Shown piece after piece: positions 1 through 19,767 of a DNA stretch of 64,000 bases (its first letter is position 1; the number at the start of each line of letters is the position of its first letter). The DNA is taken from positions 7,592 through 71,591 of the forward strand of contig CAZMND010000002.1 in assembly GCA_964567585.1 (NCBI GenBank). The letters run 5' to 3'. The stretch is from an uncultured Lachnospiraceae bacterium (GTDB taxonomy: Bacteria > Bacillota > Clostridia > Lachnospirales > Lachnospiraceae). The notes under the pieces are model-generated. The model saw only the letters and a program-made list of their open reading frames with translations. It was not told where the DNA came from and did no database searches. The translations under genes were made by a program, and so were the position numbers.

Positions 1-1457
1 GTGATGGTATGCCGGGTATTTCTTATTCCACAAGCGGTTCATCTACAGGTATGTCAAGTGCGGCAGTTCAGTTTGATATTAAAGGTGCATTGCCGGGAAC
101 TGATAACGGGTATTATATTTATCTTTATCCATCGGGAAGTTCCGAAAAAATCGAACTGGAAAAATGGGAATGTGACGGAGAAGTATATTACCTTGTAGCA
201 GGCAAAGACCCGACAACGGAAAATGATACTAAATTGTCAACTTCAGATACAAGTGTAGATTATGGTCTTGTAGCCGATGGTGCAAAAGTGGTATTTGCTA
301 TCCGTGGTCTCGAAAAGAATACTACATATCAGGTAAAACTGATGGCAAGAGATACGCAGAATGTACTTGGTGATTTGTTTGACTATAAGTACGAAACCGG
401 TGGTCGTTATTATCCGTTTAAGACAACATCTTTGATTGAGATGGAGTCAAGTAATATTACATTTACATATGATTCGTATAGAAATAAATACGGTACATTA
501 AGATATGCGGTTTTAGGTAGTGAAGGTACCGGAATGAGAATTTTCTATAAGATTTATGATGAATTAGGTGCAGAAGTAAAATGCGGTACCGGAACATATG
601 ATGATGAACTGGGATATTTATTACAGCCATTAGGTAATAATGTAAAATATTATCAGAGTGATATGGCATTATGTAACCCTGTAAATATTAATTTTGCACC
701 GGGTGGACTATTACAGATGGGAGCCACCTATACTGTGCAATATCGTGCGTATACATCTACAAATGCAGGTGTGATAACGAACAAAACAGAACCGATTGGT
801 TATTGTGAACAGACATTTACAACACCGGACACTTTAGCAATGCCGCGTGCATCAATGCGTGTCGTATCAGCTGAGGATGCTTTAAATATAACGGTTGTTA
901 TGTATGATACACAGAAAACAATATTTGATGATGTGTTCTATGTGGATGTGTATGATTTGGAAGGTAATTTGATGACCAATGAATCTACACAACTCAAAGG
1001 ACAGACCACAAGCGGAAAAAACAGTACCGTATTCAGCGGTAAGATTGAAAACCTTCCGTCTAACCAGTCATATAGGGTTATAGTTAAAGCAAGTTTGGAC
1101 CGTGATAACAACGGAGTAGCGGAAACAAGTTATGTAAACGAATTGACGGGTAGTACAATCAGTACTGCAACAGCAACAGTTTCCACAAGCTATACAGCTG
1201 ACGGATATTTGTCATTTAAACTTTTAGATTTGGCAAACTTCGATAATGTGACAAGAATTGTGTACACGATTGATTCACAGGACGGTAGTACCAACTATGA
1301 AAATGCTGATAAAGCAATTGATACATGGACAAAAGTTGGTAATACATATAGCTATACAACAAATTTTGTTCCTGAAGTAGGAACATATCATTATACATTG
1401 CAGTTCTATAACGGTAGTGCACTCGTTGGTTCTGCAAGTGGTTACTTTACAAAATAG
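1..1457 (+). CDS. 3' part of a large secreted or surface protein, truncated by the window edge, with about four tandem FN3/Ig-like beta-sandwich modules
   Basis: Frame +3 is open from the window edge (codons from nt 3), so the Met at 9 is probably internal. Four ~100-120 aa modules each end in a Y-x-V/h strand signature (TTYQVKLMARD, ATYTVQYRAYT, QSYRVIVKASLD, GTYHYTLQFYN). The stop lies 14 nt before the next gene's start. Confidence 0.7.
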   Translation, partial: DGMPGISYSTSGSSTGMSSAAVQFDIKGALPGTDNGYYIYLYPSGSSEKIELEKWECDGEVYYLVAGKDPTTENDTKLSTSDTSVDYGLVADGAKVVFAIRGLEKNTTYQVKLMARDTQNVLGDLFDYKYETGGRYYPFKTTSLIEMESSNITFTYDSYRNKYGTLRYAVLGSEGTGMRIFYKIYDELGAEVKCGTGTYDDELGYLLQPLGNNVKYYQSDMALCNPVNINFAPGGLLQMGATYTVQYRAYTSTNAGVITNKTEPIGYCEQTFTTPDTLAMPRASMRVVSAEDALNITVVMYDTQKTIFDDVFYVDVYDLEGNLMTNESTQLKGQTTSGKNSTVFSGKIENLPSNQSYRVIVKASLDRDNNGVAETSYVNELTGSTISTATATVSTSYTADGYLSFKLLDLANFDNVTRIVYTIDSQDGSTNYENADKAIDTWTKVGNTYSYTTNFVPEVGTYHYTLQFYNGSALVGSASGYFTK

Positions 1458-1471
1458 TTAGGGGAGAACGT

Positions 1472-3055
1472 ATGAAAAGGATTGAAAGAAAAAATACGGC
1501 TGAATTTAATATTTTTGGCTCTATTATAGTATTAATACTGATCACACTGACTATTTCGGTGGTAGCGGTTGTAAAAAAACAGAGTAAAAGCTACTCGGTT
1601 CCGGCTGGAAGTTGTGTATACGATATTGATAATGAGTATATTTCGATTGAAGAGGAAGCAACCATATATCAAAAAGGTGATGGAGTATATTATTTAAAGA
1701 CGGCCGGTAAAGAAGTTTATACATTGGGGAAAAATGTCGTTGTAAAAGACGGCGAAGGCCGTTCAATATGGGTTTATGGAGATTTATATGAAATTGCAGC
1801 GGATGGAACGGTTACTGTTTCATCCGGCTGTACCGAAATTAAAGATTTGGGGAAACCGGGATTGTACAAGCTGGCAGATCGCAAATATTTAATGACCGGT
1901 AACAGCATTACATCAACAGATGAAGAATATGCTACAAATGATTATGTTTATATCAACATTTATCAATCAGGGGCAGCTGTTTTAATGAATAATCAGTCGA
2001 ATCAGAATGTGATGAGACCTATTATGTTAAACAGTGAAGATTTATATCTGGATATTTCCAGCGAATATGCATTTTTTAATAACAATTTAATCAACTTGAA
2101 AAATGTTTTGGGAAGTACAAACCAGTATGGTGGAGATGCACTTATTTATGTTGAAGGTTTGGTAGATGATGAGCAGTATCAGAGTGCGGCGGATACACCG
2201 GATGTTATTACCATTGTAGGTGGTAATGGTGGTGCCGGTGGCGCAGGTGGTTCCGGTGGAACCGGCGGTAGCGGCGGCCAGGGTGGAACCGGTGGATATG
2301 GTGGAACCGGCGGTAGTGGTGGCTCAGGCGGAACCGGTGGTGTCGGTGGTGCCGGCGGAACCGGTGGTAACGGCGGTGACGGTGGCCAGGGTGGCGACGG
2401 CGGTAAAGGTAGTGATGCCAATGTCAATGCTCTTAAATGGGTAAAACTGGTAGGCGTTACAGCGGGAATCGGAACTTTGGATGTGGATTATGTTGTGACG
2501 GATATTACAGATGATTATGTGGCAGTTTGGCTTGAGGTTAAACACAAGGATTCAAGCGGTAGTGATGTTATTAATCAGGTATATTTAAGCAAAACAGATA
2601 ATCAATTTACAGTTAGAGGCTGTATTCCGGGTACATATTACGAAGTTTCATTATGGTATTCGGCATATTACAGAACCGGTGGAGTTATAGGTGAAAAACC
2701 GGAAGAAGTAATGGTGGATAGTGTAAAAGTGCAGACAAGTTCTAATCTTGGAAATATAGAAGTTGTGAAACAAACGGAAGATACAATTGATTTTGATATA
2801 AAACTGGATAGCCAGTACTTGATTTCCAGTGGAAAAGTTGGTTTATATCGTAGTGATGGAACACTAATCAGTTCACTTCCATTAGATTCTGCTACTATTA
2901 ATCAGGCAGCAAAACAGACAGTGAGACTTTCCATACCGATAAGCAGTACGGCATTAACCGGAGGAGAAAGACTTTATCTGCAGTTTACAGATGTAATTTA
3001 TAACGGCGCAGCATTTAAAATTCCGGAGCAGGCGTCTATTACATACACCAAATAG
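1472..3055 (+). CDS. N-terminally membrane-anchored surface protein with a (Gly-Gly-X)21 tract followed by two FN3-like modules
   Basis: RBS GGGGAG upstream of the ATG. Short basic N-terminus plus one TM (FGSIIVLILITLTISVVAVV). A 64-aa GGX tract. C-terminal modules carry GTYYEVSLWYSAYY and ERLYLQFTD strand signatures like those of the flanking proteins. Confidence 0.8.
   Translation: MKRIERKNTAEFNIFGSIIVLILITLTISVVAVVKKQSKSYSVPAGSCVYDIDNEYISIEEEATIYQKGDGVYYLKTAGKEVYTLGKNVVVKDGEGRSIWVYGDLYEIAADGTVTVSSGCTEIKDLGKPGLYKLADRKYLMTGNSITSTDEEYATNDYVYINIYQSGAAVLMNNQSNQNVMRPIMLNSEDLYLDISSEYAFFNNNLINLKNVLGSTNQYGGDALIYVEGLVDDEQYQSAADTPDVITIVGGNGGAGGAGGSGGTGGSGGQGGTGGYGGTGGSGGSGGTGGVGGAGGTGGNGGDGGQGGDGGKGSDANVNALKWVKLVGVTAGIGTLDVDYVVTDITDDYVAVWLEVKHKDSSGSDVINQVYLSKTDNQFTVRGCIPGTYYEVSLWYSAYYRTGGVIGEKPEEVMVDSVKVQTSSNLGNIEVVKQTEDTIDFDIKLDSQYLISSGKVGLYRSDGTLISSLPLDSATINQAAKQTVRLSIPISSTALTGGERLYLQFTDVIYNGAAFKIPEQASITYTK
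2219..2410 (+). repeat. In-frame Gly-Gly-X triplet repeat (GGNGGAGGAGGSGGTGGSGGQGGTGGYGG...GGDGGKG), a GC-rich island in AT-rich DNA
   Basis: Direct reading gives 21 consecutive GGX tripeptides. The DNA contains near-identical units (ggtggaaccggcggtagcggcggc and ggtggaaccggcggtagtggtggc). Confidence 0.95.
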
Positions 3056-3069
3056 AAAAAGGAGATTAG

Positions 3070-3318
<249 letters not shown>

Positions 3319-3342
3319 CAATCCAGGGAGGAAACTACAGAT

Positions 3343-4152
3343 ATGGGTATATTTATAGCCGTAATCGTGGTTCTTCTGGTTTTAATCTATTTTATGACAG
3401 TAATGCTTAGAAGTGTTGTTTCGGAAAGTAATCAAAAAGTAAATAGTTACTTTCTGAAAAATCTTGAAATGTATGATTCGAGATACAAAGAAAAGGTCAA
3501 TACATTAAGTAAGATTAACGTAGAATATGAAGAAGTAGCCAGAGAACTTCGTAATATGAAAAATGAGATGATATCATATAAAACTTCACCGTTTTATGCA
3601 CCACGTCCGGTGCCGCGTGATATTTACATACCGACTGCCCGTTATATCGATAATGATTTCTTTGAAGAATATAAAATCGCCAAAGATAAATTAATGAGTA
3701 TTAACAAACAGGAAGTTATTGATAATGTAATGGAAAAAGTACCGTTTCAGGGAGATATTAAGCTTTATGAAACCGTGCAGAGCATTATGGCAAAATTAAA
3801 TTTTGACGCGATTTACGATTTGTGTAGCAGTACAAAAGAAGAACAATTGCAGATTATTAAAGAGTGTTTAAACAGCGAAGAACAAAAGCTTTTGTTAAAC
3901 TACATTGAGGATATGGAAGAAATCGAAGAGTTTGAAATTCTTGGATTTACAGATTATTTAAAGCATGTGGCATGGAAGAATGATCCGCACGTATTCGTCA
4001 GTGTGGCGGAAAATGAAGAAGATTATACGGATGAAAGCAGAAATATTGTTTGTCTGGTTGACCAGAATATCTGCGAAGGTCTTAAAATTGTTTATCAGAA
4101 CAAAGTTTATGATTACAGTATTTACAAATCAAGAAGAAAAGTAGGAAGCTGA
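3343..4152 (+). CDS. Candidate peripheral-stalk protein (b-like N-terminal TM plus coiled coil, delta/OSCP-like C-terminus), 269 aa
   Basis: RBS GGGAGG. One N-terminal TM (IFIAVIVVLLVLIYFMTVML) is followed by a charged, heptad-like helix. The C-terminal EGLKIVYQNKVYDYSIYKSRRKV resembles the delta-subunit terminus GG-h-x-h-x-h-GD-x-h-h-D-x-S. It occupies the atpF/atpH position between c and alpha. Assignment is tentative. Confidence 0.45.
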   Translation: MGIFIAVIVVLLVLIYFMTVMLRSVVSESNQKVNSYFLKNLEMYDSRYKEKVNTLSKINVEYEEVARELRNMKNEMISYKTSPFYAPRPVPRDIYIPTARYIDNDFFEEYKIAKDKLMSINKQEVIDNVMEKVPFQGDIKLYETVQSIMAKLNFDAIYDLCSSTKEEQLQIIKECLNSEEQKLLLNYIEDMEEIEEFEILGFTDYLKHVAWKNDPHVFVSVAENEEDYTDESRNIVCLVDQNICEGLKIVYQNKVYDYSIYKSRRKVGS

Positions 4153-4154
4153 GT

Positions 4155-5476
4155 ATGAGTACATTTGTTGAAGGTTTAGTTAATTCAAAGCTTCGTAATA
4201 TGAAGGAAATGAAAAACGTATACGAAGTCGGACACGTAACAAAAGTAAAAGATTATATTCTCGAAGTTACGGGATTGGAATCCGTAGGATTCTATGAAAG
4301 AGTTGTTATCTCCAATTATTCGGTTGGTTATGTTACAGCTATCAAGAAAAATTCAGTAATGGTAGCTGTATTACAGAGAGCAAACGTAATATATGTTGGA
4401 GATGAAGTAGTTACAACAGGTTTTGATTTCTGTGCTATGTACAGTAGAGCGTCAATTGGTCACATTATCGATATTTTCGGTAACGACAGACTATTGGATG
4501 AAAAATTTGAGAACTTAAAACCACTTAGCATTGAAACAAATCCAATTCCGATTATGGAAAGAGGTCCTGTAAAGAGACCGTTCTATACAGGTATTGCGGG
4601 TATTGATCTTGTATATCCGATTGGGTATGGACAGCGTCAGTTGATTATCGGTGATAAAAAATCCGGTAAAACACAGATTGCATTGGATACTATCGTAAAC
4701 CAGAAAGATAAGAACGTAATTTGTATTTACGTGGCAATTAATAAAACAAAGAAAAATATTAAAGAATTATACGATATGCTTATGAAAAAGGGTGCTATGG
4801 AATATACCTTGATTGTTGCATCCTTTAGTGAAGATGAACCACCGGTAGCATACTTTACACCATATATGGCGATGTCGGTTGCAGAGCTCTATATGAGAGA
4901 AGGACAGGATGTTTTGGTTATCCTCGACGATTTAAAACATCATGCCAATATCCATCGTGAAATCAGTTTGCTGACAGGAAAAATTCCGGGTCGTGATGCA
5001 TATCCGTCCGATATATTCTACACACATTCCAGATTGTTGGAAAAAGGTTGTCAGCATAAAGACGGCGGTTCCATTACGGTACTTCCGATTGTTGAAACAA
5101 AGGGTGGAGATATTACAGACTATATTTCTACAAACATTATTTCCATCACGGACGGACAGTTGGTTCTTTCCAGAAAGAACTTTGAAAAAGGCCAGAAACC
5201 GGCTATTGACTATACCTTAAGTGTATCCCGTCTGGGTGGTGCGGTACAGGATAAGGATATGAAAGCTCTTGGTGCAAAGGTACGTCAGAGATTCTTATCA
5301 TACTTAGAAACAAGAGAAGTTTATGAACTTGCAAACACAGATGAAATGAGTTTTGAAATGCAGGCGAAATTGGAAGAAGGACGAAGAATTGAAGAAAGAC
5401 TTCTTCAGTACAAATTTTCTCCAAGAAACAAAAATGAAATTATTCATATATTTGAAGAAGCATTAGAGGACGAAAA

Positions 5477-5480
<4 letters not shown>
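4155..5480 (+). CDS. F1 ATPase alpha-subunit-like protein, 441 aa (C-terminal helical domain about 55 aa shorter than canonical)
   Basis: P-loop GDKKSGKT (canonical GDRQTGKT) at 4650-4673. Also VICIYVAI, ILDDLKHHA, PGRDAYPSDIFYTHSRLLE, ISITDGQLVL and LSVSRLGGAVQ (canonical SVSRVGGAAQ, the Arg-finger region). Confidence 0.9.
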
Positions 5481-7907
<2,427 letters not shown>

Positions 7908-7918
<11 letters not shown>

Positions 7919-8438
7919 TGTTTTGGAAGCTATTATGCAATTACGTGTATTTATTCTCGTATCAGGAATTGGAATTGTTTTAAGCGGAGTATATCTTTTG
8001 TTCCGCTGCAGAAAATTTGGTTGGAACAGAAACAATATAAAACTGATAGGCTTTTTCTACAATTTAAGTGTGTGGGACACTGTTGGTATGGCCTGCGGTT
8101 TTTTGAAAATATTCCTTGTATTTTCCATTCTGATAACTACGGGAAAAGTTGAAATTATTCATATGATTATATTTTGTATACTGGAAGTCTGTTATATTGT
8201 CCACAGACGCAGTATCAAAGGAATTATGCTGGATTTAGTGCTTAGTATGGTTTCATTGATTGTAATGAATATTATGAATATGTTACACCATTATTTGAAC
8301 GAAATTGTTTATGACGTTAAAGTGGCAATTGTCGTGTGGCTGCTTGGAGTGTTACTTTGTCTCTACGGCATTTATGATTTGATGCATTGTGCCAAAACAG
8401 TGCTTGAAACTAGGAAGGAAACTGAAGCTAAAGTATGA
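7908..8438 (+). CDS. Polytopic (~5 TM) membrane protein of unknown function, translationally coupled to epsilon
   Basis: ATG at 7908 is preceded by GAGGAGGAA (7892-7900) and overlaps the epsilon stop by 11 nt. The hydrophobic segments include one with buried polar residues (GKVEIIHMIIFCILEVCYIVHRR). Confidence 0.7.
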
Positions 8439-9184
8439 ATAAAATGAATAAACCTCAAAAAGACAAAAAAAAACATATGAACAGCTTTATAAAGGAAAAC
8501 AGACAGTGGTTTATTTTACTCGGAGCAATCTTCTTGTTTTTAATCTTGATGGTTGTTATCGTATGGTATTCAGGAACGCAGAAAAACTGGAATCCGGGAG
8601 TAGAAACCTACCGATATGTTATGGGTGTGAAGGTTCCGTATTCGCAGGATATGAAGCTGATACATACAGATGCAGGAACTTTGATTGAAGATAAGGATTC
8701 TGTTTATTCGGACGGAACACCGATTTTCAGCGAAGAGGATGAACAACTTATTTTACCTGTAAGTATGGGGTTAATGCGCCCATTTCATGAGGATTCATTA
8801 AAAAGAGTTAACTATTTTGCAACCTTAAAGAAATTAGGCGATGTTATTTCAATTGATCAAAATGGCTATACAACGGAAGTTAGCGAAGGTTTTTTGTATG
8901 ATGGAGATGGCACATATATTTTCATGGAAGATATGACATTGACGATCGGTAACAGTACCTATTATGCACATTCGTTATCTTATGCCAAGGTTTTCTACAG
9001 AGATGCAGTGGAAATTTATAATATAACAACGGGTGATTATCAGTATATTGATATTTCCAATTCGGATACGGTGGCGTTATCTGCCAATGGTTACAGTATT
9101 GATTTAGGTACAGGTGTTATGACAATCGGAGATACACAAAGAATATTATTTGCAGATATTGAGGCAATGGGAGTATTACAATGA
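8435..9184 (+). CDS. Single-pass (N-in) membrane protein with ~200-aa extracytoplasmic domain, unknown function
   Basis: ATGA overlap with the upstream stop. Lys-rich N-terminus, then one TM (WFILLGAIFLFLILMVVIVWY). Confidence 0.7.
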   Translation: MNKMNKPQKDKKKHMNSFIKENRQWFILLGAIFLFLILMVVIVWYSGTQKNWNPGVETYRYVMGVKVPYSQDMKLIHTDAGTLIEDKDSVYSDGTPIFSEEDEQLILPVSMGLMRPFHEDSLKRVNYFATLKKLGDVISIDQNGYTTEVSEGFLYDGDGTYIFMEDMTLTIGNSTYYAHSLSYAKVFYRDAVEIYNITTGDYQYIDISNSDTVALSANGYSIDLGTGVMTIGDTQRILFADIEAMGVLQ

Positions 9185-12100
9185 TTCTGAAAAAGAACAA
9201 AGAAACTGTCAAAAAAGTAAATAAAAAAGCACTGGACAAAAGAAATTATTTTTTCTTTGCCTTGGTGGGTGTTATTTTAATCGGAATTCTTATGATTCTT
9301 CAGACGAGGTTTAAAGAATACTTCCGTTTGAATAATGATGGATTTGCCGTTGTCAGCAATACAGTTACGGAATACTTGAGTATTGATCCAAACGAAGAAG
9401 ACGTTGAGAAAATTATTTCGCTTAAGTCTTTTGACGCCTTGGAATATCTTTATACACAGGGAGGAAAAATTTTCCTTGGTGAGGATAAAAAGGTAGAAGT
9501 TGATACTTCGTATCCTGTGTATATGAATCAGGGCGCGGTATTACAACTGATAGAGGGAACCGGTATCCTGTATGATGAGGATTACGAAAGGGTGGAAACA
9601 TATCAGGGGCTCTATATTGAGGGCGGTTATGCGTATAACGTGGACGGACAAAAAGCCGATCCTGTGAGATATCTGTTCCTCGGTATGAATAATGGTAACT
9701 TTGTTAACTTTGATGAAATTACTTATCACTTAAAAAATGAAGAATATGATATTAATGAAAACTCTCTGGTTCACTTTGAAGCAGATTATTTTTCATATTA
9801 TGAATATGAAAAAGGGGAACTTGTTTATAAATACTGTGTAAGTGTAAATGATTCATTCAAACTTAAGGTTGGAGAAACACAGTATACTTATGATGAATTA
9901 TTAAAACTTTTGGGATTAAGAAGTGAATATGCTTCGTTTGATGGCATTGAAAAAGATGAAAATGTCGAAGAAGATTTTACTGTTAATGACGATGTCGAGA
10001 TGGATGAAGATGAGGATGATACGGTAGAAGCCCAAGTGGAAAAACCGAAAGCACAGCCGTCTACGCCGCCTACACCTCCGGCACCGAGTCAAGGAAAAGA
10101 AAATACGAATTCGTCACCGGGAGTCAGACCGGAAGGAATTGTGAGACCGGGAAGCGGTTCGGGAAATACGGAAGATAAGACAGATGAGGTTGAAAATTAT
10201 ATACAGCCGAATGTTATTATCAACAGTGTAAGTGCAAAGGTGTACCGTATCGAAATCGATGCAACCGTATATGATCCGGCAAACCGTATCGATACAACCA
10301 GATTTGTCCGTTTTGAAGTATATGAAGTGGATAAAGACGGTAATGAGCAGTTGGCTATGAGAAGTTACAGAAGAGGAGAAGGACAGAATGTTACGACTCT
10401 AGGCGGCGGTGCAATTAAGCCGGAAACGACATATCGTATCTATGGCGACTATACGTATTTTGACCAGTATGACAAAGAACAATATGTAGATTTGGGTTCA
10501 TATGAAATTACAACGGGAAGTTTTTCTGATTTAACCCAAATTTCATTAACACATAAACAAGGTACCAGTTATCACAATAGAATTGAAGTTGTGGATTTTG
10601 GTTACAAACCGGATGAATCTGATGATGAATTAATATATGGTATAAGCCAATATGGCGGTATCAGATTTGTTGTTAAAAACAAAACTACAGGTGCTGAAGT
10701 TACTTCAAGAATACTGACAGTAGGTGAAACAAACAGCTTCAAGGCCAACAACGGTGTAATTTTAAACAGTCTCAGCACTCTGAAAGCCAAAACAGAATAT
10801 CAGTATGAATTTGAAATTGAAGACTATTTTGGAAATAAAATTACATTGGAAAATGCAATTGGATATGCGATGACAAGTAATCATGCTCCAAGTGCAACAA
10901 TTATTGAAAAAAATAATGAAATTGGAAGAATGGTATTAACATTATCCATTGAGGATGTTGATGCTGCGGCAGTTCCGTCTAAAAGCACGACGGATGCGGC
11001 GGATGCTTGTGATGTTTATGTAATTCTGACAAAAGATGATCCTTCGCGTTTGGAAAAGTATACAACCTTCGAAGAGATGGAAGAAGCAGGTGTTATTACT
11101 GCGTATAAGAAGCTTGATGTGGGTGAATATACATATACACCATATGATTCAGAAACAGGAACAATTTCTGCCACAAATTTAGATATAGAATTTACAAATT
11201 TGAGATTGGGAGAAAAATTCTTTGTTACCGTGTATGGTGATTATGATTTAACCAACCAGAAAGGTCCGCAGTATTTCAAACCAATAGGTCAGTCATCCTT
11301 TAAAACGACTGATTTGAACTCGCTTGGTAAAATCTACGTTACAGTAGATTTTGATACAGACAGACTTACATATAAATCATTGCCAATGAGCTTCCATTTA
11401 AATAACGAAGCTACAAGTCCGCAGTTAGAAACGCTTATAACAGGTATGAAAATTGATGTTATAAGAGATGGCGGAGTAGGTGATGATGCAATTATTGATG
11501 CGACTTTTGGATTTACGGACAGTACGTTGGCTGCCGATGGTAGCACAAAGATAATTGATATGTTTAAAAATACGGCGGTAACATATCTTGCCGATAATTT
11601 GCAGAGTATGACAGAATATCAGCTGAAGGCGGTTATATATGCAAAATATCAGGATGAGGAATATGAAATTACACCGCAGTTGTCAAACTATGCATTTAAA
11701 ACCCTTCGTAAACCGGCGGAAGTAATTGTGGAAGATTTACTTTTTGCGGCAGGAACCTTGGTTTTTGACGTAAAAGTAGAAGATCCTGACGAAACTGTTA
11801 TCGGTATTTCGGGAGATAAGGTGGTAGTCCAACTGTATACAAGAGAAGGTGAGTTTGTTAAAACAACCCGTGTGGAAAAAGGTCTGGAAGAATGGCAGAC
11901 GGTTACCTTTGATAATTTGGACCCGGGTAAAAAATACCAAATTCGATTTGTGGCGGTAGAATATAACGAAGGTTATACAAATGCAAGCTATGAGTCTAAC
12001 AAAATATTAAAAACAGTAGATGTTAATGAATCCATGAGTATGGATGGAACAATAAAATTGCAGTCTGTTAGCGAAATAGACGGTGATGTGGAGCATTACC

Positions 12101-15100
12101 AAGCATTGGTTAAGGCTACACTTAGTGACCCGGACCATTATCTGACAAGAAAGGATGCAATTCCTTACTACATCAGAGTGGAAAAAGATGGTGTAATTGT
12201 CGAAGATACGGCATATGATTTGTCGCAGGAAGAAGAAGCTGCTGTCTACGAAAAGAAACATAGCTACATTGTTGACAAAGGCGAACATACATATAAATTT
12301 ACAATGTATGTGATTGTAAGTGACAGATTCGTAGAATTGGATACACTTACATTTACAACAGAAGAAATTATTCAGGGATTTGATACTGCATATGAAATGA
12401 TAAAGCTTCTTCAGGACAATCCGGATGGTAAATATGTTGCAACAAACAGTTTTGTACTCAATTCCAATGAATGGAATTTCAAAGATGTTGTGGACCCGGG
12501 TGATGTGGAAGCAATGCCGGAAGCAGATCTTGAGGCTATGGGAGATGGCTTATCAGGGGCCAATATTGTTAATATTTTCAATGGTAAAATTGATTTCCAA
12601 GGTTTTACCTTGACACATAACTATTATGAAGATTCCCAAAGAATGATTACTAATATTGGTTCCCAAGGTGTTATTGAAAATTTTGTGTATTCGGTTAAAT
12701 GTTTAAATGCTACCAGAGTTTATGATGATGGTGTACTTTGCTATCGAAATTTTGGTACGATTCGTGACATTTATATGAAATACCATGGAGGATATTATTT
12801 AAATAATGAATATTTTGGTATTTTATGTCGAATTAATTCTTCAACAGGTATAATTGAAAAATTTGTTATTGAGAATATTCCTGACGAAGGTTTTTCAAGT
12901 TTTAGTGCATACAAAAATGCCGGAATTGTGGCAAATACAAATTATGGCATTGTGCGTTATGGATATGCATATGGAGAAAATGTTGTTACTACTGAAGTAA
13001 ACCAAATTACATCAAGAGATATCGGTGGTTTGGTGGGTGTTAATGCTACACTTGGTAATATGTATAGTTTATATAGTTTACTAAATGTGGATGAAACCAG
13101 CTTGCGTAAGGACAGCGATTATACATATGGTGGTGATTATGGTGCAGTTTGTGGACGTTCAACGGGCAAACTTCACAATCTTTATTCTGCAAAAGACAGT
13201 TTTATTATAGAAAGTAAAAATAGTGAAGCGGATGGTTATCATCATAGTCAGGTTGTTGGTCGGAGAACAAGACCAACTAACTCGAATGTTTATTATTATA
13301 GTAATAAATCATATCCGGATGCGGAAGCTTCAAAAGTATATAGTGTTGGCATTAATGAGTTATATGATGTAACATGGCAAAAAAATATGTTGACGGATAA
13401 TTTTGATGTGAGTCTTGTAGAGGTTGGATATTATCCACACATTGAACTTTCTTCGGATTTGCCGGAACAGGAGTATATTGCATTACCTACAAGGGATATG
13501 TCACAACAAGTTGAAATATCTAGAGCGACTGTAATGGAATATGGTGTTTTAGCGGATGGAAAGACCGATTGTGCAACAGTAGAATTTGTATTTTCAAATA
13601 GAGATGGCGTGAATATTATCGGTCTTGAAATTACAGACCTTGATGTAGAACTTGATTTAACAACAGCATCTTATGAAGATGGTTATACTACAATTTGGGG
13701 TGTGGTTTCCAATCCGAGAAGCTTTTATTCGGAATACGAGATACAGAGCGTAAAATATTATCGAAACAGTAATCTTTCTGCCAATGCAGTAAACTATCTT
13801 TTAAAGGCAGATTTTTGCCGTAAAATTTATACTACAGATGACTGGTATGATTATATGGTTGACCGCAATAGTGCGGAGGAATACGAAAACATAAAATTAG
13901 AAGCTGATTTGGATTTCCAAGGTATTAAAGCGGATGATATTATGGTTAAATATGCCTTTGACCGTATTTTTGACGGCAATGGACATACGATTTCCAACAT
14001 TGACTTACAATATGGATTTAATGCAAAAAATAATTCTACTATAAGACGATTGTTTAAGGGAGACATTCAGTACAGTAGTACCATTAAGAATTTATATATT
14101 GAAAATTATAAAGCAGGTGGAAAATATTATTATGCATCAAAAGGTAAAACATATATTTCCACATCAGCAGGTGTTTTTGGTACGGTTTATGGTGTGTTAG
14201 AAAACATACATGTAAAAGATGTGGAACTTTATACCTACAGTTATGCAGGCGGTTTGGCGGCATATCTGGCAGCTTCCGGTGAAGCAAAGGATTGTTCAGT
14301 AACAAATCTTAATTTAGTGTATTGTGATCCGAATGATACTAATGTTGACAGTTTTATCGGTGGTCTTGTTGGTCGAATGAATGAATCAAGACTGAGTCAT
14401 TGCTATACACAAAATGTAAATATTACTGTTGAAGAGACAAAATCAACTTATGGTATAGGTGGTGTTGTTGGCTATGCAGTAAACAGTGTGATTGACACAG
14501 CTTATGCGGAAGGTGAAATTGTCAGTCGAGCACAAAAAGTTGGTGGTGTTGTAGGACATTACTATTGTACAAATGCTGCTGTTGCATGTATGAAAAATAT
14601 GTATGCAAAGGTGGATATAATTTGTTATACAGATATTGTTGGTGGTTTGGTCGGTCAGAATAATATTACCCAGGAAAGAGTCAGTGCAACAAATAACTTT
14701 TCAGGTATTGCTTTTGGAAACGTTTATCTTTCCAACATTGATTCTGTGAACTGTTCACAGACCATTGGTGCAAATTTAGGTAAGACTGCAACCTTCTATG
14801 GCTACGAAGAGCAGCTTGTCAATGGTATATCCGGTGTAGGCTATGAAGGAAAAGAAGAGTATATCAGAGGGCTGGCAAGTTTTGACGAACTGATGAATGA
14901 TGCAGAAAATACATATTTTAATGTGATTGAATTTGAAAATGTATATGATGTATCCGGTGCAGAAGACGGTTATTTGCCGAAAATGTACTATGAAGACCAA
15001 AGTAAAGGTTTGCTTCCAAATCAAACAGATTTAGTATTAAATGAACTAAGGGAACTGGATATTGAAGTAACAAATGTTCTTCATAATGATGTAAACAGGC

Positions 15101-18100
15101 TTGTAACTGTAGAACTTCGAAATCCGAATAATTACAAAATTACAGCAATCAATATCAGAGATTTAAAATATCATTTTGTTGATATGACAAAAGGAAGTGC
15201 TCATTATGGAGATGCGGTTTCTATTGATGTGGCATCGGATTATGATAGAGGATATACGCGTATTTATCTTCAGTATGATGAAGAGCGAAATCAGGAATAT
15301 TTTTTAGACAGTTATGTTTTGGACAAAATCTCGTTCTATGCTGTTGAAAACAGTGGATTAGATAAAAATCTTACATCAGATAGCATAACAACTAATTTAA
15401 AAGATATTGAGATTTATTCAAGAATTAATGTAATGTTATGTATGGATATTCCGAATGTTTCGGCATGGCAGAATATTGCAAATAGGGAAAATAATGGTCA
15501 TACCTATGAAAATTACCGTTTGACAGGCGATTTGGACTTCACTTATGAAAAACCTGCAACGAATTTGAAACTTGGACGATTGATTTCGGATAATGGTGAA
15601 AGAACTATCCGAAATGTTAATATCAAAGGTGCAGATATGCATTTGATTTCAAGATTAAATAGTGGTATATCCGGTGTTAATTTTGTTAATTGTACGGTTA
15701 CATCATCGACAGTAAACTGTATTGGACTTATTGGTGTATCGAATGGTTCAATAATTAATTGTGATTTTGAAAAAATTACAATTAATCCACAGACCAATAA
15801 CCGTGATGAAGTTGGTATTATCGGTCACTGTAATGGTGGTACATATAAAAATATTACCTTAAAAGATATTACAATTAATGCCACACAAACAAATATCGAT
15901 TATGTTGGTGGTTTTGCAGGTAAAGTTCAAGATGAAAGTTTTTACGAAAATATCGCGGCTTCAAATATCAAGGTAACAGGAACTGCGAATTATGTCGGCG
16001 GTTTGGCGGGCTATATTGAAACAGCAAATGTGAAAGATATAGATATCAGTGATATTGTAGTGGATGGAAAAGCAAACTACGTAGGTGGCTTTAGTGGACT
16101 ACTTGGTGCTAATAGTAACTATAGAGATCAAGTTGCCTCTAATATAAGAATTACAGGAACGGCTACTTATGATGCAGAGGGAAGATGTGTATCCTCTACA
16201 ACCAATATTTATGGAAATAAATATGTAGGCGGATTTGTAGGATATATTTGTGAAAAAGTTGGTACAGCATATGAAGTTTCACGAATTAATCCGAATCTGT
16301 TAGTAGATCAGGTGGTTGTAGAAGGGCTTGATTGCTTCGGTGGTGCTATTGGTTGGTCCTATACCAATATGTATCATTTAACAGTAAGTAATAGTTTAGT
16401 AAAAACAAGAAGCACTATGGATTCGGCAACAGTTTATGCATCATGTGGCGGTATCATAGGTGAAACGACATATTCAGCCACTAGGGCACTTTTGACAGAT
16501 AATGTTTTGATTGATGTTACAAATACCAATAATGTAGGTGGCCTTGTGGGTGCATATAGCAAAGCTACCATGCAACAGTGTTTTGCTAAAAACAGCCATA
16601 TCAATGCTTCAAAAACCAATAAATGTACAGAAACATTGATAAATGTTGGTGGTCTTATAGGATGTTATGAAAATTCAATGTATTATAACGGAGTTCTCAA
16701 TACCAATATTTATGCTCCGGATTATAGTAATGTCGGTGGCCTTGTAGGTCGTTTATCTACATCCCTTGCCAATAGTCATTATGTTGGCCGTTCCTTCTAT
16801 TTGGCTGATTATGATAAAGAAGCAGAATTAGAATATTTAGCAGATACATTGAATCGATATACGGCAGCTGCATCAGATGATTATTATGTTGTAGGTTTTA
16901 CAAACGTTGGTGGTCTTGTAGGTATGCAAAACAGTGGTTATGTAAGAGAAAATTATTCTAATGCTAATGTTATTGCAGCCAATACACAGATAGCCGGTGG
17001 TATGGTTGGTATGTACTGTAATGAGTATATTGCAAGTGTTTCTGCAGGAAAAACGAATTATACATATTCTGTAACCGGTATGTATAATAACTATTTTGCA
17101 GGAAATGTAACGGCTGTTAATGGTTATGCAGGAGGGGCAATTGGTAGGACAGGACTTCTATATAAGGGTCTGGGTACTGATGCAAATGGAACTGTTTCAT
17201 TGACAGGCTATAATGGTAGCCGTATCAAAGGTGTAAACTCTAATACCAACGAAGTAGATAAAACATACGGTAATATTGTATTTGCTGATACAATTACCGG
17301 TGGAAGTGGCAAAACAGGTGCTTTTGCAGCTGATGACACCAAGTTTGTATTTATTGGTCGAGATAACCGTATTTGGGATAAAACTATTTTAAATGATGGT
17401 ACAGGTAATGTTTATGCAGCTTCAATAACGAAGGAAGACGGAGCGTATGCGTATAATTACTGGAATCCTGATAAAACAAAGCTTGCTTCAGGTTTCCCTA
17501 GTAAATTGAATGAGATGCAAGTTTTTGAAAGCACAGATCTTGATGGTAGTTATGTTGTAAATACTAAATATAACAGAGCAAGTAACTTCTACAGTTCTAT
17601 TGGTTGGACATTGGCATATACAGGAACGGCATCTTATGGTTATGTAAACCGTAATACATACTGGGGAGCATCCGTAGGTGATATCCCGGATGGTTCCGGC
17701 GGCACAAAGGGGCTTAGAAACAGATATGATCCAAATGTATATGATTCCGGCTCATACCTGCCGATTATCCGTGAAGCTACTACAACAATGTATAACCAGG
17801 ATAATCTTGTTCAGAAGCAGTTTACTTTAAGCAGACTGCCGTTGCCAAGAGATAAGGCTATGGCACGTACACTTAGTTTGACTTCAAATTATGGTTTGAG
17901 ACAGATAGAAGCTACTTACGGTACCTTGTATGCATCGGATATTGATAAAATCAACGTGGAATTCTCTGATGATTTGGTAGATGCAGGATATTATGTATTA
18001 AAATCAGGTGATACTGTAATTGCAAAAGAAGTAATTAAAGACAGGGTAACAACATTTAGTTATGCATTTGATGAAAACATAACCTTCGAATATGGTTTCT

Positions 18101-19611
18101 TAAAAGATACGAGTTTATCGGAAGATACTATTTTGAAGGGAAGTAATCTTGAGGAACTGGAAAGCCTTCTTTTCGGTGTGAATGATATTAAGACAGATAT
18201 TATGGTATACAGAAATGATTACTATTATATTTCGGAGGAAGGTCTTGTTTCATCAGCAGGCACATGGGCAGGCGACTTTGTTACATTGATGAATGGTAAA
18301 GCATTAGATGCAAGTGGAAATATCTGGAATGTAGAAAGCCGTAAGAAAGTAGGAAGTGTTACACAAACAGTGAAACAAAGTGAGGATAATCCACTTTGGA
18401 CATTCAAATACGGAAGTATTGATATAAAAACCTATGCGAAGTTCAGTGCAATTGAATCGGAATATGATACTATCAACAGAAATGCACAGATTTTTGTACT
18501 GAATGAACAGTTATTCGCTGTGGATGGTTCGCTTGAAACAAGAAAGACGGATATTTTGATTTACAAACTGAATGGCGTTCAATACCAGACAGTTCTGGGT
18601 AATGATGGTATGATGGTTGATATGATGCAGGATGATTGGAATATTCCGGAAGACGTGGACAATCAGGCGATTGTTCGTATGAGTAATACGTTAAATGCAT
18701 CGGTTCCATATGTTCTTGTTGAATACAATAACGGCGGAATTATCGGATATAATTACGCAACAGGCGATATCCTTTTTGATAACAGTATCGAAAAAGAAGT
18801 TTCTCTGTTAGATTATGCGGTTGAATTCTTTGGTGAGAAGAAAGATTCACAGTATGCAAATATCAGCAATACTTATTCGGCAAATGCTAATTTGAGTGAA
18901 ATGATTCATTCAGCTGCTGATTTGGAAAAAATTGTCGGTAACAGTTCGGGTGAACTTGTAACTGATAACAGTACCGGAGAAAATACAGGTTCTACGGTAG
19001 GTGCGCAGGCGATGGCGGATGCAAATAATGCACAGGCAGGAGAAGGTGTACAAGGAAGCAGTGATGCACTGAATGGCCAGGGTTCTAATGAAGATGATTT
19101 TGCAGGCGTAAAGGATGATGAAGAAGGTACGTTTGTAAGTACACAGGAAACAGAACCTGAAAATGCTACAGAAAATGAAAGTACTTCTTCTGAAACATCA
19201 ACCGAAATCGTGGAAGATGAAAACACCAAGGATTCGGATGATACTAATGTAGATAATACGGAAGAAGGTAATTCGTCTGCGAATAATCCAAATCCGAGCG
19301 AACGTCCGGAAAATCCGGGTGAAAATCAGGAAGTCGGAGCCGGAGAATATATGACTGTTTACAACAATGAAACAGGCGTATATGAAATTGTCAGTGTGGC
19401 AGAGTATCTCACTAAGGATGCGTATATTTCCGAAAATCATAAACTGGGTATTAAAGATTTATCTAAAGAAGTATCCAGTGGATATGCGGTATCGACTATT
19501 GATGTAAATCAGGAAAGAGGTATTATTATGTACATTATTCCGATTTTCATTATCTTTGGTATTGCAGGCGCAATTATTATTTATGTAAAACGTAAAGAGC
19601 GTAAAGCATAA
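9181..19611 (+). CDS. Giant (3,476 aa) surface protein: N-terminal TM, acidic/Pro-rich stalk, six FN3-like modules, three beta-helix cassettes with GLUG-like motifs, C-terminal globular region, acidic low-complexity stalk, C-terminal TM plus KRKERKA tail
   Basis: A single uninterrupted 10.4-kb ORF with an ATGA overlap with the upstream gene. TM segments at ~9247-9303 and ~19519-19587. Motifs were read directly (see the repeat feature and findings). Confidence 0.9.
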   Translation: MILKKNKETVKKVNKKALDKRNYFFFALVGVILIGILMILQTRFKEYFRLNNDGFAVVSNTVTEYLSIDPNEEDVEKIISLKSFDALEYLYTQGGKIFLGEDKKVEVDTSYPVYMNQGAVLQLIEGTGILYDEDYERVETYQGLYIEGGYAYNVDGQKADPVRYLFLGMNNGNFVNFDEITYHLKNEEYDINENSLVHFEADYFSYYEYEKGELVYKYCVSVNDSFKLKVGETQYTYDELLKLLGLRSEYASFDGIEKDENVEEDFTVNDDVEMDEDEDDTVEAQVEKPKAQPSTPPTPPAPSQGKENTNSSPGVRPEGIVRPGSGSGNTEDKTDEVENYIQPNVIINSVSAKVYRIEIDATVYDPANRIDTTRFVRFEVYEVDKDGNEQLAMRSYRRGEGQNVTTLGGGAIKPETTYRIYGDYTYFDQYDKEQYVDLGSYEITTGSFSDLTQISLTHKQGTSYHNRIEVVDFGYKPDESDDELIYGISQYGGIRFVVKNKTTGAEVTSRILTVGETNSFKANNGVILNSLSTLKAKTEYQYEFEIEDYFGNKITLENAIGYAMTSNHAPSATIIEKNNEIGRMVLTLSIEDVDAAAVPSKSTTDAADACDVYVILTKDDPSRLEKYTTFEEMEEAGVITAYKKLDVGEYTYTPYDSETGTISATNLDIEFTNLRLGEKFFVTVYGDYDLTNQKGPQYFKPIGQSSFKTTDLNSLGKIYVTVDFDTDRLTYKSLPMSFHLNNEATSPQLETLITGMKIDVIRDGGVGDDAIIDATFGFTDSTLAADGSTKIIDMFKNTAVTYLADNLQSMTEYQLKAVIYAKYQDEEYEITPQLSNYAFKTLRKPAEVIVEDLLFAAGTLVFDVKVEDPDETVIGISGDKVVVQLYTREGEFVKTTRVEKGLEEWQTVTFDNLDPGKKYQIRFVAVEYNEGYTNASYESNKILKTVDVNESMSMDGTIKLQSVSEIDGDVEHYQALVKATLSDPDHYLTRKDAIPYYIRVEKDGVIVEDTAYDLSQEEEAAVYEKKHSYIVDKGEHTYKFTMYVIVSDRFVELDTLTFTTEEIIQGFDTAYEMIKLLQDNPDGKYVATNSFVLNSNEWNFKDVVDPGDVEAMPEADLEAMGDGLSGANIVNIFNGKIDFQGFTLTHNYYEDSQRMITNIGSQGVIENFVYSVKCLNATRVYDDGVLCYRNFGTIRDIYMKYHGGYYLNNEYFGILCRINSSTGIIEKFVIENIPDEGFSSFSAYKNAGIVANTNYGIVRYGYAYGENVVTTEVNQITSRDIGGLVGVNATLGNMYSLYSLLNVDETSLRKDSDYTYGGDYGAVCGRSTGKLHNLYSAKDSFIIESKNSEADGYHHSQVVGRRTRPTNSNVYYYSNKSYPDAEASKVYSVGINELYDVTWQKNMLTDNFDVSLVEVGYYPHIELSSDLPEQEYIALPTRDMSQQVEISRATVMEYGVLADGKTDCATVEFVFSNRDGVNIIGLEITDLDVELDLTTASYEDGYTTIWGVVSNPRSFYSEYEIQSVKYYRNSNLSANAVNYLLKADFCRKIYTTDDWYDYMVDRNSAEEYENIKLEADLDFQGIKADDIMVKYAFDRIFDGNGHTISNIDLQYGFNAKNNSTIRRLFKGDIQYSSTIKNLYIENYKAGGKYYYASKGKTYISTSAGVFGTVYGVLENIHVKDVELYTYSYAGGLAAYLAASGEAKDCSVTNLNLVYCDPNDTNVDSFIGGLVGRMNESRLSHCYTQNVNITVEETKSTYGIGGVVGYAVNSVIDTAYAEGEIVSRAQKVGGVVGHYYCTNAAVACMKNMYAKVDIICYTDIVGGLVGQNNITQERVSATNNFSGIAFGNVYLSNIDSVNCSQTIGANLGKTATFYGYEEQLVNGISGVGYEGKEEYIRGLASFDELMNDAENTYFNVIEFENVYDVSGAEDGYLPKMYYEDQSKGLLPNQTDLVLNELRELDIEVTNVLHNDVNRLVTVELRNPNNYKITAINIRDLKYHFVDMTKGSAHYGDAVSIDVASDYDRGYTRIYLQYDEERNQEYFLDSYVLDKISFYAVENSGLDKNLTSDSITTNLKDIEIYSRINVMLCMDIPNVSAWQNIANRENNGHTYENYRLTGDLDFTYEKPATNLKLGRLISDNGERTIRNVNIKGADMHLISRLNSGISGVNFVNCTVTSSTVNCIGLIGVSNGSIINCDFEKITINPQTNNRDEVGIIGHCNGGTYKNITLKDITINATQTNIDYVGGFAGKVQDESFYENIAASNIKVTGTANYVGGLAGYIETANVKDIDISDIVVDGKANYVGGFSGLLGANSNYRDQVASNIRITGTATYDAEGRCVSSTTNIYGNKYVGGFVGYICEKVGTAYEVSRINPNLLVDQVVVEGLDCFGGAIGWSYTNMYHLTVSNSLVKTRSTMDSATVYASCGGIIGETTYSATRALLTDNVLIDVTNTNNVGGLVGAYSKATMQQCFAKNSHINASKTNKCTETLINVGGLIGCYENSMYYNGVLNTNIYAPDYSNVGGLVGRLSTSLANSHYVGRSFYLADYDKEAELEYLADTLNRYTAAASDDYYVVGFTNVGGLVGMQNSGYVRENYSNANVIAANTQIAGGMVGMYCNEYIASVSAGKTNYTYSVTGMYNNYFAGNVTAVNGYAGGAIGRTGLLYKGLGTDANGTVSLTGYNGSRIKGVNSNTNEVDKTYGNIVFADTITGGSGKTGAFAADDTKFVFIGRDNRIWDKTILNDGTGNVYAASITKEDGAYAYNYWNPDKTKLASGFPSKLNEMQVFESTDLDGSYVVNTKYNRASNFYSSIGWTLAYTGTASYGYVNRNTYWGASVGDIPDGSGGTKGLRNRYDPNVYDSGSYLPIIREATTTMYNQDNLVQKQFTLSRLPLPRDKAMARTLSLTSNYGLRQIEATYGTLYASDIDKINVEFSDDLVDAGYYVLKSGDTVIAKEVIKDRVTTFSYAFDENITFEYGFLKDTSLSEDTILKGSNLEELESLLFGVNDIKTDIMVYRNDYYYISEEGLVSSAGTWAGDFVTLMNGKALDASGNIWNVESRKKVGSVTQTVKQSEDNPLWTFKYGSIDIKTYAKFSAIESEYDTINRNAQIFVLNEQLFAVDGSLETRKTDILIYKLNGVQYQTVLGNDGMMVDMMQDDWNIPEDVDNQAIVRMSNTLNASVPYVLVEYNNGGIIGYNYATGDILFDNSIEKEVSLLDYAVEFFGEKKDSQYANISNTYSANANLSEMIHSAADLEKIVGNSSGELVTDNSTGENTGSTVGAQAMADANNAQAGEGVQGSSDALNGQGSNEDDFAGVKDDEEGTFVSTQETEPENATENESTSSETSTEIVEDENTKDSDDTNVDNTEEGNSSANNPNPSERPENPGENQEVGAGEYMTVYNNETGVYEIVSVAEYLTKDAYISENHKLGIKDLSKEVSSGYAVSTIDVNQERGIIMYIIPIFIIFGIAGAIIIYVKRKERKA
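10201..12366 (+). repeat. Six tandem FN3/Ig-like modules within the giant protein
   Basis: Recurrent ~105-145 aa units end in strand signatures TTYRIYGDYTY, TEYQYEFEIEDY, KFFVTVYGDYDL, TEYQLKAVIYAKY, KKYQIRFVAVEY and HTYKFTMYVIV, followed by h-x-h-T-T. Confidence 0.6.
12379..17150 (+). repeat. Three beta-helix-type super-repeats carrying at least 18 GGLVG/GGhhG (GLUG-like) motifs within the giant protein
   Basis: Cassette entry signatures are FNGKIDFQGFTLTHN (12577-12621), DLDFQG...FDGNGHTISNIDL (~13900-14010) and GDLDFTYEK...SDNGERTIRNVNI (~15520-15625). Motifs include IGGLVGVN, FIGGLVGRMN, VGGVVGHY, VGGLVGQN, YVGGFAGK, YVGGLAGY, YVGGFSGL, YVGGFVGY, NVGGLVGAY, NVGGLIGCY, NVGGLVGRL, NVGGLVGMQ, AGGMVGMY and YAGGAIGR. 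Confidence 0.7.
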
Positions 19612-19619
19612 AACTAAAG

Positions 19620-19651
19620 GAGTCGTAATTTGATGATTACGGCTCTTTTTA
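19620..19651 (+). terminator. Rho-independent terminator closing the giant-protein/F1-like operon
   Basis: Stem GAGTCGTAAT / ATTACGGCTC (10 bp, one G-U pair), 6-nt loop, then TTTTT. It starts 9 nt after the stop codon. Confidence 0.8.
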
Positions 19652-19767
19652 TGCATATCGCACAAAAAGAGAAAAAAAACTTGTGAAATATGTACACTTA
19701 TAACGTTGTGTTTTTATATAAAATTCTTTATTCTTATTGTGTATGTTTAAGTACAGAAGGAGAACTT

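Follow-up and report, generated by a model that had tools for sequence, protein, structure and literature searches.

A putative F-type-derived ATPase without an ion site, encoded in one operon with giant surface proteins of Lachnospiraceae

Rotary ATPases are textbook ion-coupled energy converters. To our knowledge, the only exceptions used for cell-surface work are the F1-like X0 ATPases of mycoplasmas, which serve gliding and the cleavage of antibodies by the MIB-MIP system. Here we analyze a stretch of 64,000 nucleotides (nt) from an uncultured Lachnospiraceae bacterium (assembly GCA_964567585.1, contig CAZMND010000002.1, positions 7,592 to 71,591; hereafter the window), which begins with an operon of eleven genes (g01 to g11) in which homologues of F-type ATPase subunits are enclosed by membrane-anchored surface proteins. 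Judged by its sequences, this module cannot be an ion-coupled housekeeping ATP synthase, because the carboxylate of the c subunit is lost in 28 of 28 distinct c-like sequences, no a subunit is encoded, and the subunits score under the equivalog cut-offs. On balance, it probably encodes an F-type-derived rotary ATPase that is uncoupled from ions and built into a complex of giant anchored surface proteins, where it would act as an ATP-powered actuator.

Among the mycoplasma enzymes, type 2 is the gliding G1-ATPase of Mycoplasma mobile (MMOB1610-1670), and type 3 (MSC_0618-0624) is required for, and tied to, the MIB-MIP system (PMC12994834). These F1-like X0 ATPases were reported to be without equivalent in other bacteria (PMC3369863). 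The present module resembles them by analogy, as a presumably accessory F1-derived ATPase, probably a hydrolase, that is linked to very large surface proteins (PMC3369863, PMC11864180, PMC12994834). The mycoplasma seven-gene clusters differ from it in that they contain no c-like gene and no membrane-anchored stalk, encode a protein 1 with 12 transmembrane (TM) helices, and follow the order 1, 2, gamma, epsilon, 5, alpha, beta. The leg proteins of M. mobile are encoded apart from its ATPase genes, whereas the giants are here encoded in the ATPase operon itself; the host, a walled, sporulating member of the Clostridia, is likewise unlike the mycoplasmas. With 315-391 bits against cut-offs of 520-850, alpha and beta of the module fall outside the models of both types, the beta subunit has no counterpart of the ~30 kDa N-terminal extension carried by type 2 beta, and for the accessory proteins there is no NCBIfam match.

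A preliminary description of the window, made from its letters and open reading frames (ORFs), had already drawn the mycoplasma comparison. It is apt as an analogy and does not extend to membership, as a c-ring protein and a putative peripheral stalk are retained in the module, whose alpha and beta subunits are closer to canonical F1. The same description knew of no account of a linkage between an F1-like ATPase and giant surface proteins, in agreement with our literature search for this module, which returned mycoplasma work and unrelated papers only and no prior account. The evidence points to an F-type ATPase recruited for surface work with an origin independent of the mycoplasma systems.

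Organization of the operon

The operon occupies positions 9-19611 of the window, with all eleven genes consecutive on the + strand of the ORF map, and is closed by a terminator:

9-1457 (5' end cut by the window start), + strand: g01, the C-terminal 482 amino acids (aa) of a ~2,100-aa N-anchored surface protein
1472-3055, + strand: g02, 527-aa N-anchored surface protein with a (GGX)n repeat
3073-3318, + strand: g03, 81-aa c-subunit-like hairpin
3343-4152, + strand: g04, 269-aa peripheral-stalk candidate, b-delta-fusion-like
4155-5480, + strand: g05, 441-aa alpha-like non-catalytic subunit
5477-6259, + strand: g06, 260-aa gamma-like central stalk protein, with an ATGA overlap with the alpha gene
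6268-7635, + strand: g07, 455-aa beta-like catalytic subunit
7619-7918, + strand: g08, 99-aa epsilon-like protein
7908-8438, + strand: g09, 176-aa protein with five TM helices
8435-9184, + strand: g10, 249-aa single-pass protein, with ATGA overlaps on both sides
9181-19611, + strand: g11, 3,476-aa giant surface protein anchored at both ends
19619-19651, + strand: intrinsic terminator closing the operon, a 12-bp stem followed by a T-run (TTTTTAT)

The genes are spaced by 2-24 nt or overlap. The intergenic gaps measure 14, 17, 24, 2 and 8 nt, ATGA overlaps occur at 5477, 8435 and 9181, and the beta and epsilon genes overlap by 17 nt, the epsilon and 5-TM genes by 11 nt. For the 5-TM gene the start was placed at the methionine at 7908, which is common to all orthologues; the listed ORF began at 7809. 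By these overlapping start and stop codons, the sequence has the ATPase genes translationally coupled to those of the 5-TM, single-pass and giant proteins. Folding of the terminator yields a hairpin of -22.4 kcal/mol (z = -6.6), while a scan with a terminator consensus returned only weak + strand candidates (5-7 bp), all within coding sequence and none in an intergenic gap. The preliminary description of an eleven-gene run with these gaps and overlaps, one strong terminator at its end and none inside, is thereby borne out, as is its truncated first frame, which full-length orthologues identify as the end of g01.

In common with the canonical F1Fo operon (atpIBEFHAGDC), the module has the order c, stalk, alpha, gamma, beta, epsilon, the catalytic residues, the best PDB match of alpha and beta, a c hairpin with GxGxGxG motif and RNPE loop, and a stalk candidate with a delta/OSCP-like predicted fold. 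It differs in that an a subunit, atpI and a second b are absent; b and delta would form one protein, the c subunit is without Glu or Asp, alpha is ~65 C-terminal residues shorter, epsilon has no C-terminal helices, and the genes lie among five surface-protein genes. The possibility that this is nevertheless an ordinary housekeeping ATP synthase operon, with the surface-protein genes as mere neighbours, draws on the canonical look of the subunit order and on a beta subunit that comes near the atpD cut-off (448 against 462.85 bits). We regard it as extremely unlikely: beside the loss of the carboxylate, the a subunit and the epsilon helices and the truncation of alpha, gamma reaches only 62 of the required 194 bits, the ATPase genes are joined by start/stop overlaps to those of the membrane and giant proteins, and synteny is kept across lineages with GC contents of 0.21-0.49 while the flanks differ.

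Subunits of the ATPase and the lost ion site

The c-like protein g03 matches Pfam ATP-synt_C (E = 1.4e-8) and scores 27.3 bits with TIGR01260 (cut-off 43.95). Its orthologues were collected as 28 distinct sequences from 37 loci with a DNA GC content of 0.21-0.49, and not one of the 28 has Asp or Glu in TM2. The best PDB match of a profile built from 15 orthologues is the c ring of A. woodii (4bem), whose Na+-binding Glu aligns with T, A, V or I and whose site Gln aligns with Leu. In the same 15-orthologue alignment (identity 65-91%), the GxGxGxG packing motif and a GRNPETK loop are invariant; the canonical counterpart of this loop contacts gamma and epsilon. Such a pattern is that expected of a ring which still assembles and meets the central stalk, and which by its sequence would be unable to carry ions. 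The A. woodii ring also provides a precedent for a carboxylate-free c hairpin (c1), with the difference that the non-binding hairpin is there mixed with nine binding c2/3 subunits (nine c2 chains in 4bem), whereas the sole c gene of the module is without ion site in every lineage.

No a subunit is found in the module, and g09 is its only polytopic protein. The protein has no Pfam match at gathering score and no NCBIfam match. Three residues, F50, L126 and Y129, do not vary among its orthologues and a fourth, D/E136, hardly does; there is no invariant Arg. The AlphaFold2 model (pLDDT 82, pTM 0.76) has no Foldseek match in the PDB under E = 2. A divergent a subunit is rejected on the absence of a conserved Arg together with a confident model without a-like fold match; g09 is a candidate membrane stator or adaptor with a novel fold.

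These observations bear on a reading in which the module still pumps ions or makes ATP through a non-canonical coupling site (H/Q50, S51 and T60 of the c-like protein) and g09 its very divergent a subunit. The gene order E-(F/H)-A-G-D-C, the presence of a polytopic membrane protein in the operon and the public annotation as F0F1 would all agree with such a pump, which we nonetheless consider very unlikely: the TM2 carboxylate is missing in every c-like sequence and its position varies between T, A, V and I, g09 offers neither conserved Arg nor a-like fold, up to three copies occur in a single metagenome-assembled genome (MAG), and ion pumping gives no reason for the strict co-conservation with five surface-protein genes. 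As to the annotation, exact or near-exact copies of the c, alpha and beta subunits carry the labels 'F0F1 ATP synthase subunit C/alpha/beta' or 'F-type H+-transporting ATPase subunit c' in NCBI and IMG, and the exact c-like sequence is present on 312 contigs.

The head subunits alpha (g05, ATP-synt_ab, E = 8e-72), beta (g07, ATP-synt_ab, E = 3e-64) and gamma (g06, ATP-synt, E = 1.1e-23) are recognized by Pfam, and all subunits score under the NCBIfam equivalog cut-offs of the canonical, N-ATPase and mycoplasma type 2 and type 3 models. For beta, the scores are 448 bits with atpD (TIGR01039, cut-off 462.85), 407 with alt_F1F0 (752), 391 with MSC_0618 (570) and 373 with MMOB1670 (850). Alpha scores 426 bits with PRK13343 (cut-off 554), 372 with atpA (TIGR00962, 484), 373 with MMOB1660 (600), 315 with MSC_0619 (520) and 348 with alt_F1F0 (750.5). 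Gamma was compared with TIGR01146, and epsilon (g08) has no NCBIfam match. The N-ATPase operon (atpDCQRBEFAG) encodes AtpQ, AtpR, a full a subunit and a Na+-binding c subunit; the module is comparable to it by analogy, as a presumably accessory F-type operon, and differs in gene order, with the alt_F1F0 scores of alpha and beta placing it outside this group. In a comparison with PDB sequences, the best match of both subunits is the F1 of thermophilic bacilli (beta 382 bits, alpha 314 bits), the chains of the M. mobile G1-ATPase scoring lower than canonical F1 (beta 321 bits, alpha 260 bits).

The PDB alignment has the catalytic motifs of beta intact (Walker A GGAGVGKT, GERSREG with the catalytic Glu, Walker B DVLLFVDN), and the DELSEED loop reads EELSLAD. 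Alpha keeps its Arg finger (SVSRLGG) and ends ~65 residues early, being aligned to residues 16-438 of the 509 residues of a PS3-type alpha. Its N-terminal segment aligns from PS3 alpha residue 8, a region that in canonical enzymes holds the stalk-binding helix. The protein g08, which sits directly after beta and is kept in all loci, consists of only the N-terminal beta-sandwich of an epsilon subunit and is without the C-terminal inhibitory helices; its comparison with PS3 epsilon gives E = 0.3-0.5 in the PDB profile search and E = 5.9e-4 in an hhalign alignment to residues 4-79. Intact catalytic residues and an epsilon without inhibitory helices would both fit an ATP-hydrolysing machine. Of the series c, b/delta, alpha, gamma, beta and epsilon in atpE-(F/H)-A-G-D-C order that the window was first proposed to encode, Pfam thus recovers c, alpha, gamma and beta; for epsilon the sequence support is weak, and b/delta is indicated by predicted fold only.

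The latter assignment concerns g04, the single stalk-like protein of the operon, which encodes no second b subunit. No sequence match was found for g04 in Pfam, NCBIfam or a PDB profile search. Its AlphaFold2 model (pLDDT 79) consists of a TM helix that runs on as an 80-residue helix, a disordered motif, a helical bundle and a small beta domain, and the top 36 Foldseek matches in the PDB are, 36 of 36, ATP synthase delta/OSCP chains, including that of the mycobacterial b-delta fusion (best E = 5e-3, probability up to 0.99). On this model we read g04 as a candidate peripheral stalk resembling a b-delta fusion. The linker motif SPFYAPRPxxRDIYIPTARYIDNDFF (window positions 3586-3663, aa 82-107) is invariant and the most conserved part of g04 within the close subfamily; AlphaFold predicts the segment to be disordered, and a partner probably docks here. 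The mycobacterial b-delta fusion (AtpFH) and the GliD protein of M. mobile similarly combine a long b-like helix with a delta-like domain in one polypeptide. They differ from g04 in having no sequence similarity to it, and the mycobacterial enzyme has a separate b' and a functional a/c ion path. A sequence homologue of b, delta or GliD was sought in g04 by PDB profile search with nothing relevant returned, so that fold prediction alone points to delta/OSCP.

The likeness to GliD leads to a further alternative, namely a non-rotary, cytoskeleton-like force generator of the M. mobile kind, in which dimers or chains of F1-like units under the membrane pull on the TM anchors of the surface proteins and the c-like protein is a membrane anchor only. 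There is a precedent in the twin motors of the G1-ATPase, where GliD, thought to derive from a b-delta fusion, bridges the hexamers and has no TM segment (PMC11864180). The present module contains a b-delta-like protein too, and one variant of it encodes a positioning ATPase of the ParA/MinD type. We hold this alternative to be unlikely. Canonical F1 outscores the G1-ATPase for both beta (382 against 321 bits) and alpha (314 against 260 bits), the scores with the MMOB1660 and MMOB1670 models lie far under the cut-offs, and beta has no N-terminal extension; g04 has a TM helix where GliD has none, and the c-like protein ranks with the best-conserved parts and keeps the ring-packing motif and rotor-contact loop.

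Surface proteins and conservation of the module

The four anchored proteins, that is g02, g10, g11 and the full-length orthologues of g01, all begin with a signal-anchor helix. Full-length g01 orthologues (L001:1851-8120; Kineothrix L014:1416-7958) carry their TM helix at the N-terminus and comprise 2,010-2,247 aa, the closest relative having 2,089 aa and Kineothrix 2,180 aa. They are built from a membrane-proximal domain, a collagen-like GXY stretch (Pfam Collagen, E = 1.9e-8) and Ig-like repeats; the likeness to Scl-type collagen adhesins is limited to the collagen stretch. The TM scan of g02 gives a TM helix at aa 16-34. The protein further comprises a membrane-proximal domain, a collagen-like (GGX)n repeat (~aa 250-315) and, towards the C-terminus, beta-rich domains, and has no match in Pfam or NCBIfam; the gene is immediately upstream of the c-like gene in all loci. 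An 82-aa proline-rich ORF on the minus strand (2179-2427) is the reverse complement of this repeat and not a gene. In g01 as well as in g02, the collagen-like stretch sits just outside the membrane-proximal domain. The single-pass protein g10 has a TM helix at aa 25-43 and an extracellular domain. The giant g11 has TM helices at aa 24-42 and 3448-3466, the latter followed by a KRKERKA tail, and contains a membrane-proximal domain, a Pro-rich linker, beta-rich repeats, stretches of GLUG-type motifs and an acidic low-complexity region; self-BLAST detected no internal repeats, and there is no match in PDB sequences, NCBIfam or PADLOC.

The Gly-rich, 5-TM and single-pass proteins first noted around the ATPase genes correspond to g02, g09 and g10. 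The description of g11 as a giant GLUG/FN3 protein holds for the giant anchored surface protein and less for its domains: Glug reaches 21.0 bits against a cut-off of 20.5, a marginal score obtained only when the segment is scanned alone, and fn3 stays under threshold with 16.9 bits against a 25-bit cut-off. As firm domains of g11 both are unsupported at Pfam thresholds for the whole protein and marginal on fragments.

The membrane-proximal domains form two paralogous pairs according to hhalign, g01 with g02 (N-termini, E = 2.4e-5, probability 75%) and g10 with the N-terminus of g11 (E = 3.6e-6, probability 87%). These profile-profile signals are moderate; those for g01/g11 and g02/g10 are weak, and BLASTP finds no pairwise similarity between the domains.

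Another use of the F1-like head would be as an export or assembly motor, that is a translocase or unfoldase like FliI/FliJ for giants too large or too repetitive for unaided Sec. For both alpha and beta, relatedness to the FliI/SctN families can be detected, the giants measure 2,000-5,000 aa and the genes are translationally coupled. Several features make such a motor improbable, in our estimate. The hetero-hexameric alpha/beta pair, the c-ring protein and the putative peripheral stalk are parts of a torque generator and not of an export gate; no polytopic protein resembling an export gate is encoded, since g09 has only five TM helices and no fold match; and the helices of all anchored proteins are ordinary N-terminal signal-anchors. 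FliI-type scores (176-202 bits against a cut-off of 379.5 for fliI_yscN) are far under the F1-type scores and place the module outside the FliI/SctN export ATPases, which are homo-hexamers with a FliJ-like stalk, whereas two distinct subunits are present here.

The distribution of the module was followed through g04, its specific marker. For beta the databases contain thousands of relatives, of which the top 120 share 78-96% identity with it and derive from Lachnospiraceae MAGs. An indexed search returned 92 clusters of g04 and an exhaustive profile search 473 clusters at 50% identity; a scan of the GTDB species genomes gave at least 23 loci. These derive from Roseburia, Butyrivibrio, Kineothrix alysoides KNHs209, Lachnospiraceae bacterium G11 and various faecal and rumen MAGs. 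The order of the eleven genes is identical in every genome locus of sufficient length. Alpha orthologues are 57-98% identical (73-98% in genome loci showing full synteny), beta orthologues 64-95% (77-95%) and c-like orthologues 64-99% across loci. The surface proteins g01, g10 and g11 diverge more (23-71%; g11 24-68%), and in distant lineages the order is kept with a stalk protein of 22-33% and a giant of 24% identity. Nine distant metagenomic relatives of g04 were looked up, and all nine adjoin an 81-aa c-like gene. Where the contig permits, they also carry alpha (437-449 aa), gamma (258-263 aa), beta and an 83-96-aa epsilon-like protein, together with proteins of 5-TM and 1-TM size and large flanking proteins.

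Two complete distant operons were recovered. In the first (L037, GC 0.26) the giant has 2,994 aa with TM helices at both ends, and a terminator hairpin follows directly 3' of the gene. The second (L034, the Logan contig SRR21150872) has a 505-aa beta, a downstream giant of 5,088 aa and an upstream giant of at least 2,600 aa; between gamma and beta it contains a gene (12814-13584) for a 256-aa ATPase of the ParA/MinD family, which hints at a spatial positioning of the machine.

The linkage between ATPase and giant-protein genes is thus kept across lineages with GC contents of 0.21-0.49, and ATPase and surface genes, whose separate inheritance would have spoken against a common function, stand in the same order in essentially every locus long enough. 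The genes upstream of g01 differ between loci, and therefore the conserved unit is the module itself. By sequence and synteny, the region forms a self-contained module that Lachnospiraceae have conserved by vertical descent. An origin from a mobile element or defence system finds no support in the searches of PLSDB plasmids and INPHARED phages with g04 and of PADLOC, which gave no match.

Two sources call for a comment. A MAG labelled 'uncultured Hungatella sp.' (SRP287540_co2_50) harbours, on three contigs (L015, L016 and L022), three differing copies of the c, stalk and alpha genes with differing c-like sequences, which are either paralogous systems or the product of a strain-mixed bin. A further locus (L003, JBQKHF010000004.1) comes from a record entitled 'Thermoguttaceae bacterium LCP21S3_D1'. 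When compared with the window proteins, its operon gives nearly the identities of a locus from a Roseburia MAG (L002), and the Thermoguttaceae label looks wrong.

The remainder of the window is ordinary chromosome, with genes for an LtaS-type sulfatase-domain protein, a nucleoside phosphorylase, yabP, yqfD, phoH, a MiaB-like radical-SAM enzyme and mutS. Directly past the terminator (19690-21936) lies the gene of the 748-aa membrane protein with a Sulfatase domain that resembles an LtaS-type enzyme, and downstream of it follow the pyrimidine-nucleoside phosphorylase and the sporulation genes yabP and yqfD. Two + strand ORFs (25985-27244, 419 aa; 27742-29370, 542 aa) have no Pfam match at E <= 1e-5. 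Within the 64-kb window, neither a second alpha/beta pair nor a V-type operon was found.

A candidate ATP-powered surface machine

A functional complex of the ATPase and the anchored proteins would be the economical reading of these facts. In the machine that we propose, alpha3beta3 would hydrolyse ATP and turn gamma-epsilon and the c-ring against a stator formed by the b-delta-like stalk (g04) and the 5-TM protein (g09). With a ring unable to carry H+ or Na+, the work would leave mechanically, through the membrane-proximal domains of the four anchored proteins and on to the extracellular giants; the output could be movement, tensioning or remodelling of adhesive fibres, and possibly surface motility. 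We favour this actuator because the parts of a torque generator are retained (ring motif, rotor loop, central stalk, putative peripheral stalk, catalytic residues) and because the parts for ion coupling and for the inhibition of hydrolysis are lost (c carboxylate, a subunit, epsilon helices). The dedicated ATP-hydrolysing motor for surface proteins, as it was put in the preliminary description, gains support from the co-conservation and from the loss of ion coupling with intact catalytic residues; the plain housekeeping F-type operon, which would have spoken against that description, loses ground for the reasons given at the outset.

Several points weigh against the actuator. The epsilon assignment of g08 is weak (hhalign probability 29%), and so are the Foldseek E-values (5e-3 or higher) behind the delta-like assignment of g04, the uniform list of matches notwithstanding. 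For a core stator, the 5-TM protein evolves unusually fast, its identity between lineages being 20-30%. The case for assembly, rotation and coupling comes from homology and gene order only, and a route by which torque would pass from the c-ring to the extracellular proteins is not evident.

A more specific and speculative form of the proposal, to which we assign a low probability, is a third kind of bacterial rotary surface organelle. Its proton-blind c-ring would turn or cyclically strain an extracellular shaft and so give surface motility or active adhesion through the cell wall. The shaft would consist of the trimer-compatible collagen-like stalks of g01 and g02, the stator of the b-delta-like stalk, the 5-TM protein, g10 and the doubly anchored g11. 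Such an organelle could mark an evolutionary path along which F-type ATPases came to serve surface work, either earlier than the mycoplasma systems or alongside them.

As an F-type derivative, the module is more complete than the mycoplasma enzymes, since c-ring protein, putative peripheral stalk and F1 head are kept. In Firmicutes that are abundant in gut and rumen, it is tied to surface proteins measuring 2,000-5,000 aa. The F0F1 labels on its genes can mislead metabolic reconstructions of Lachnospiraceae. Cultured carriers exist in Kineothrix alysoides KNHs209 and Lachnospiraceae bacterium G11, which makes the idea directly testable. It bears on the use of the torque or force of F-type motors beyond ion transport, and on how Gram-positive gut commensals power adhesion or movement. 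If the proposal is true, the module would constitute an undescribed ATP-powered cell-surface machine in walled bacteria.

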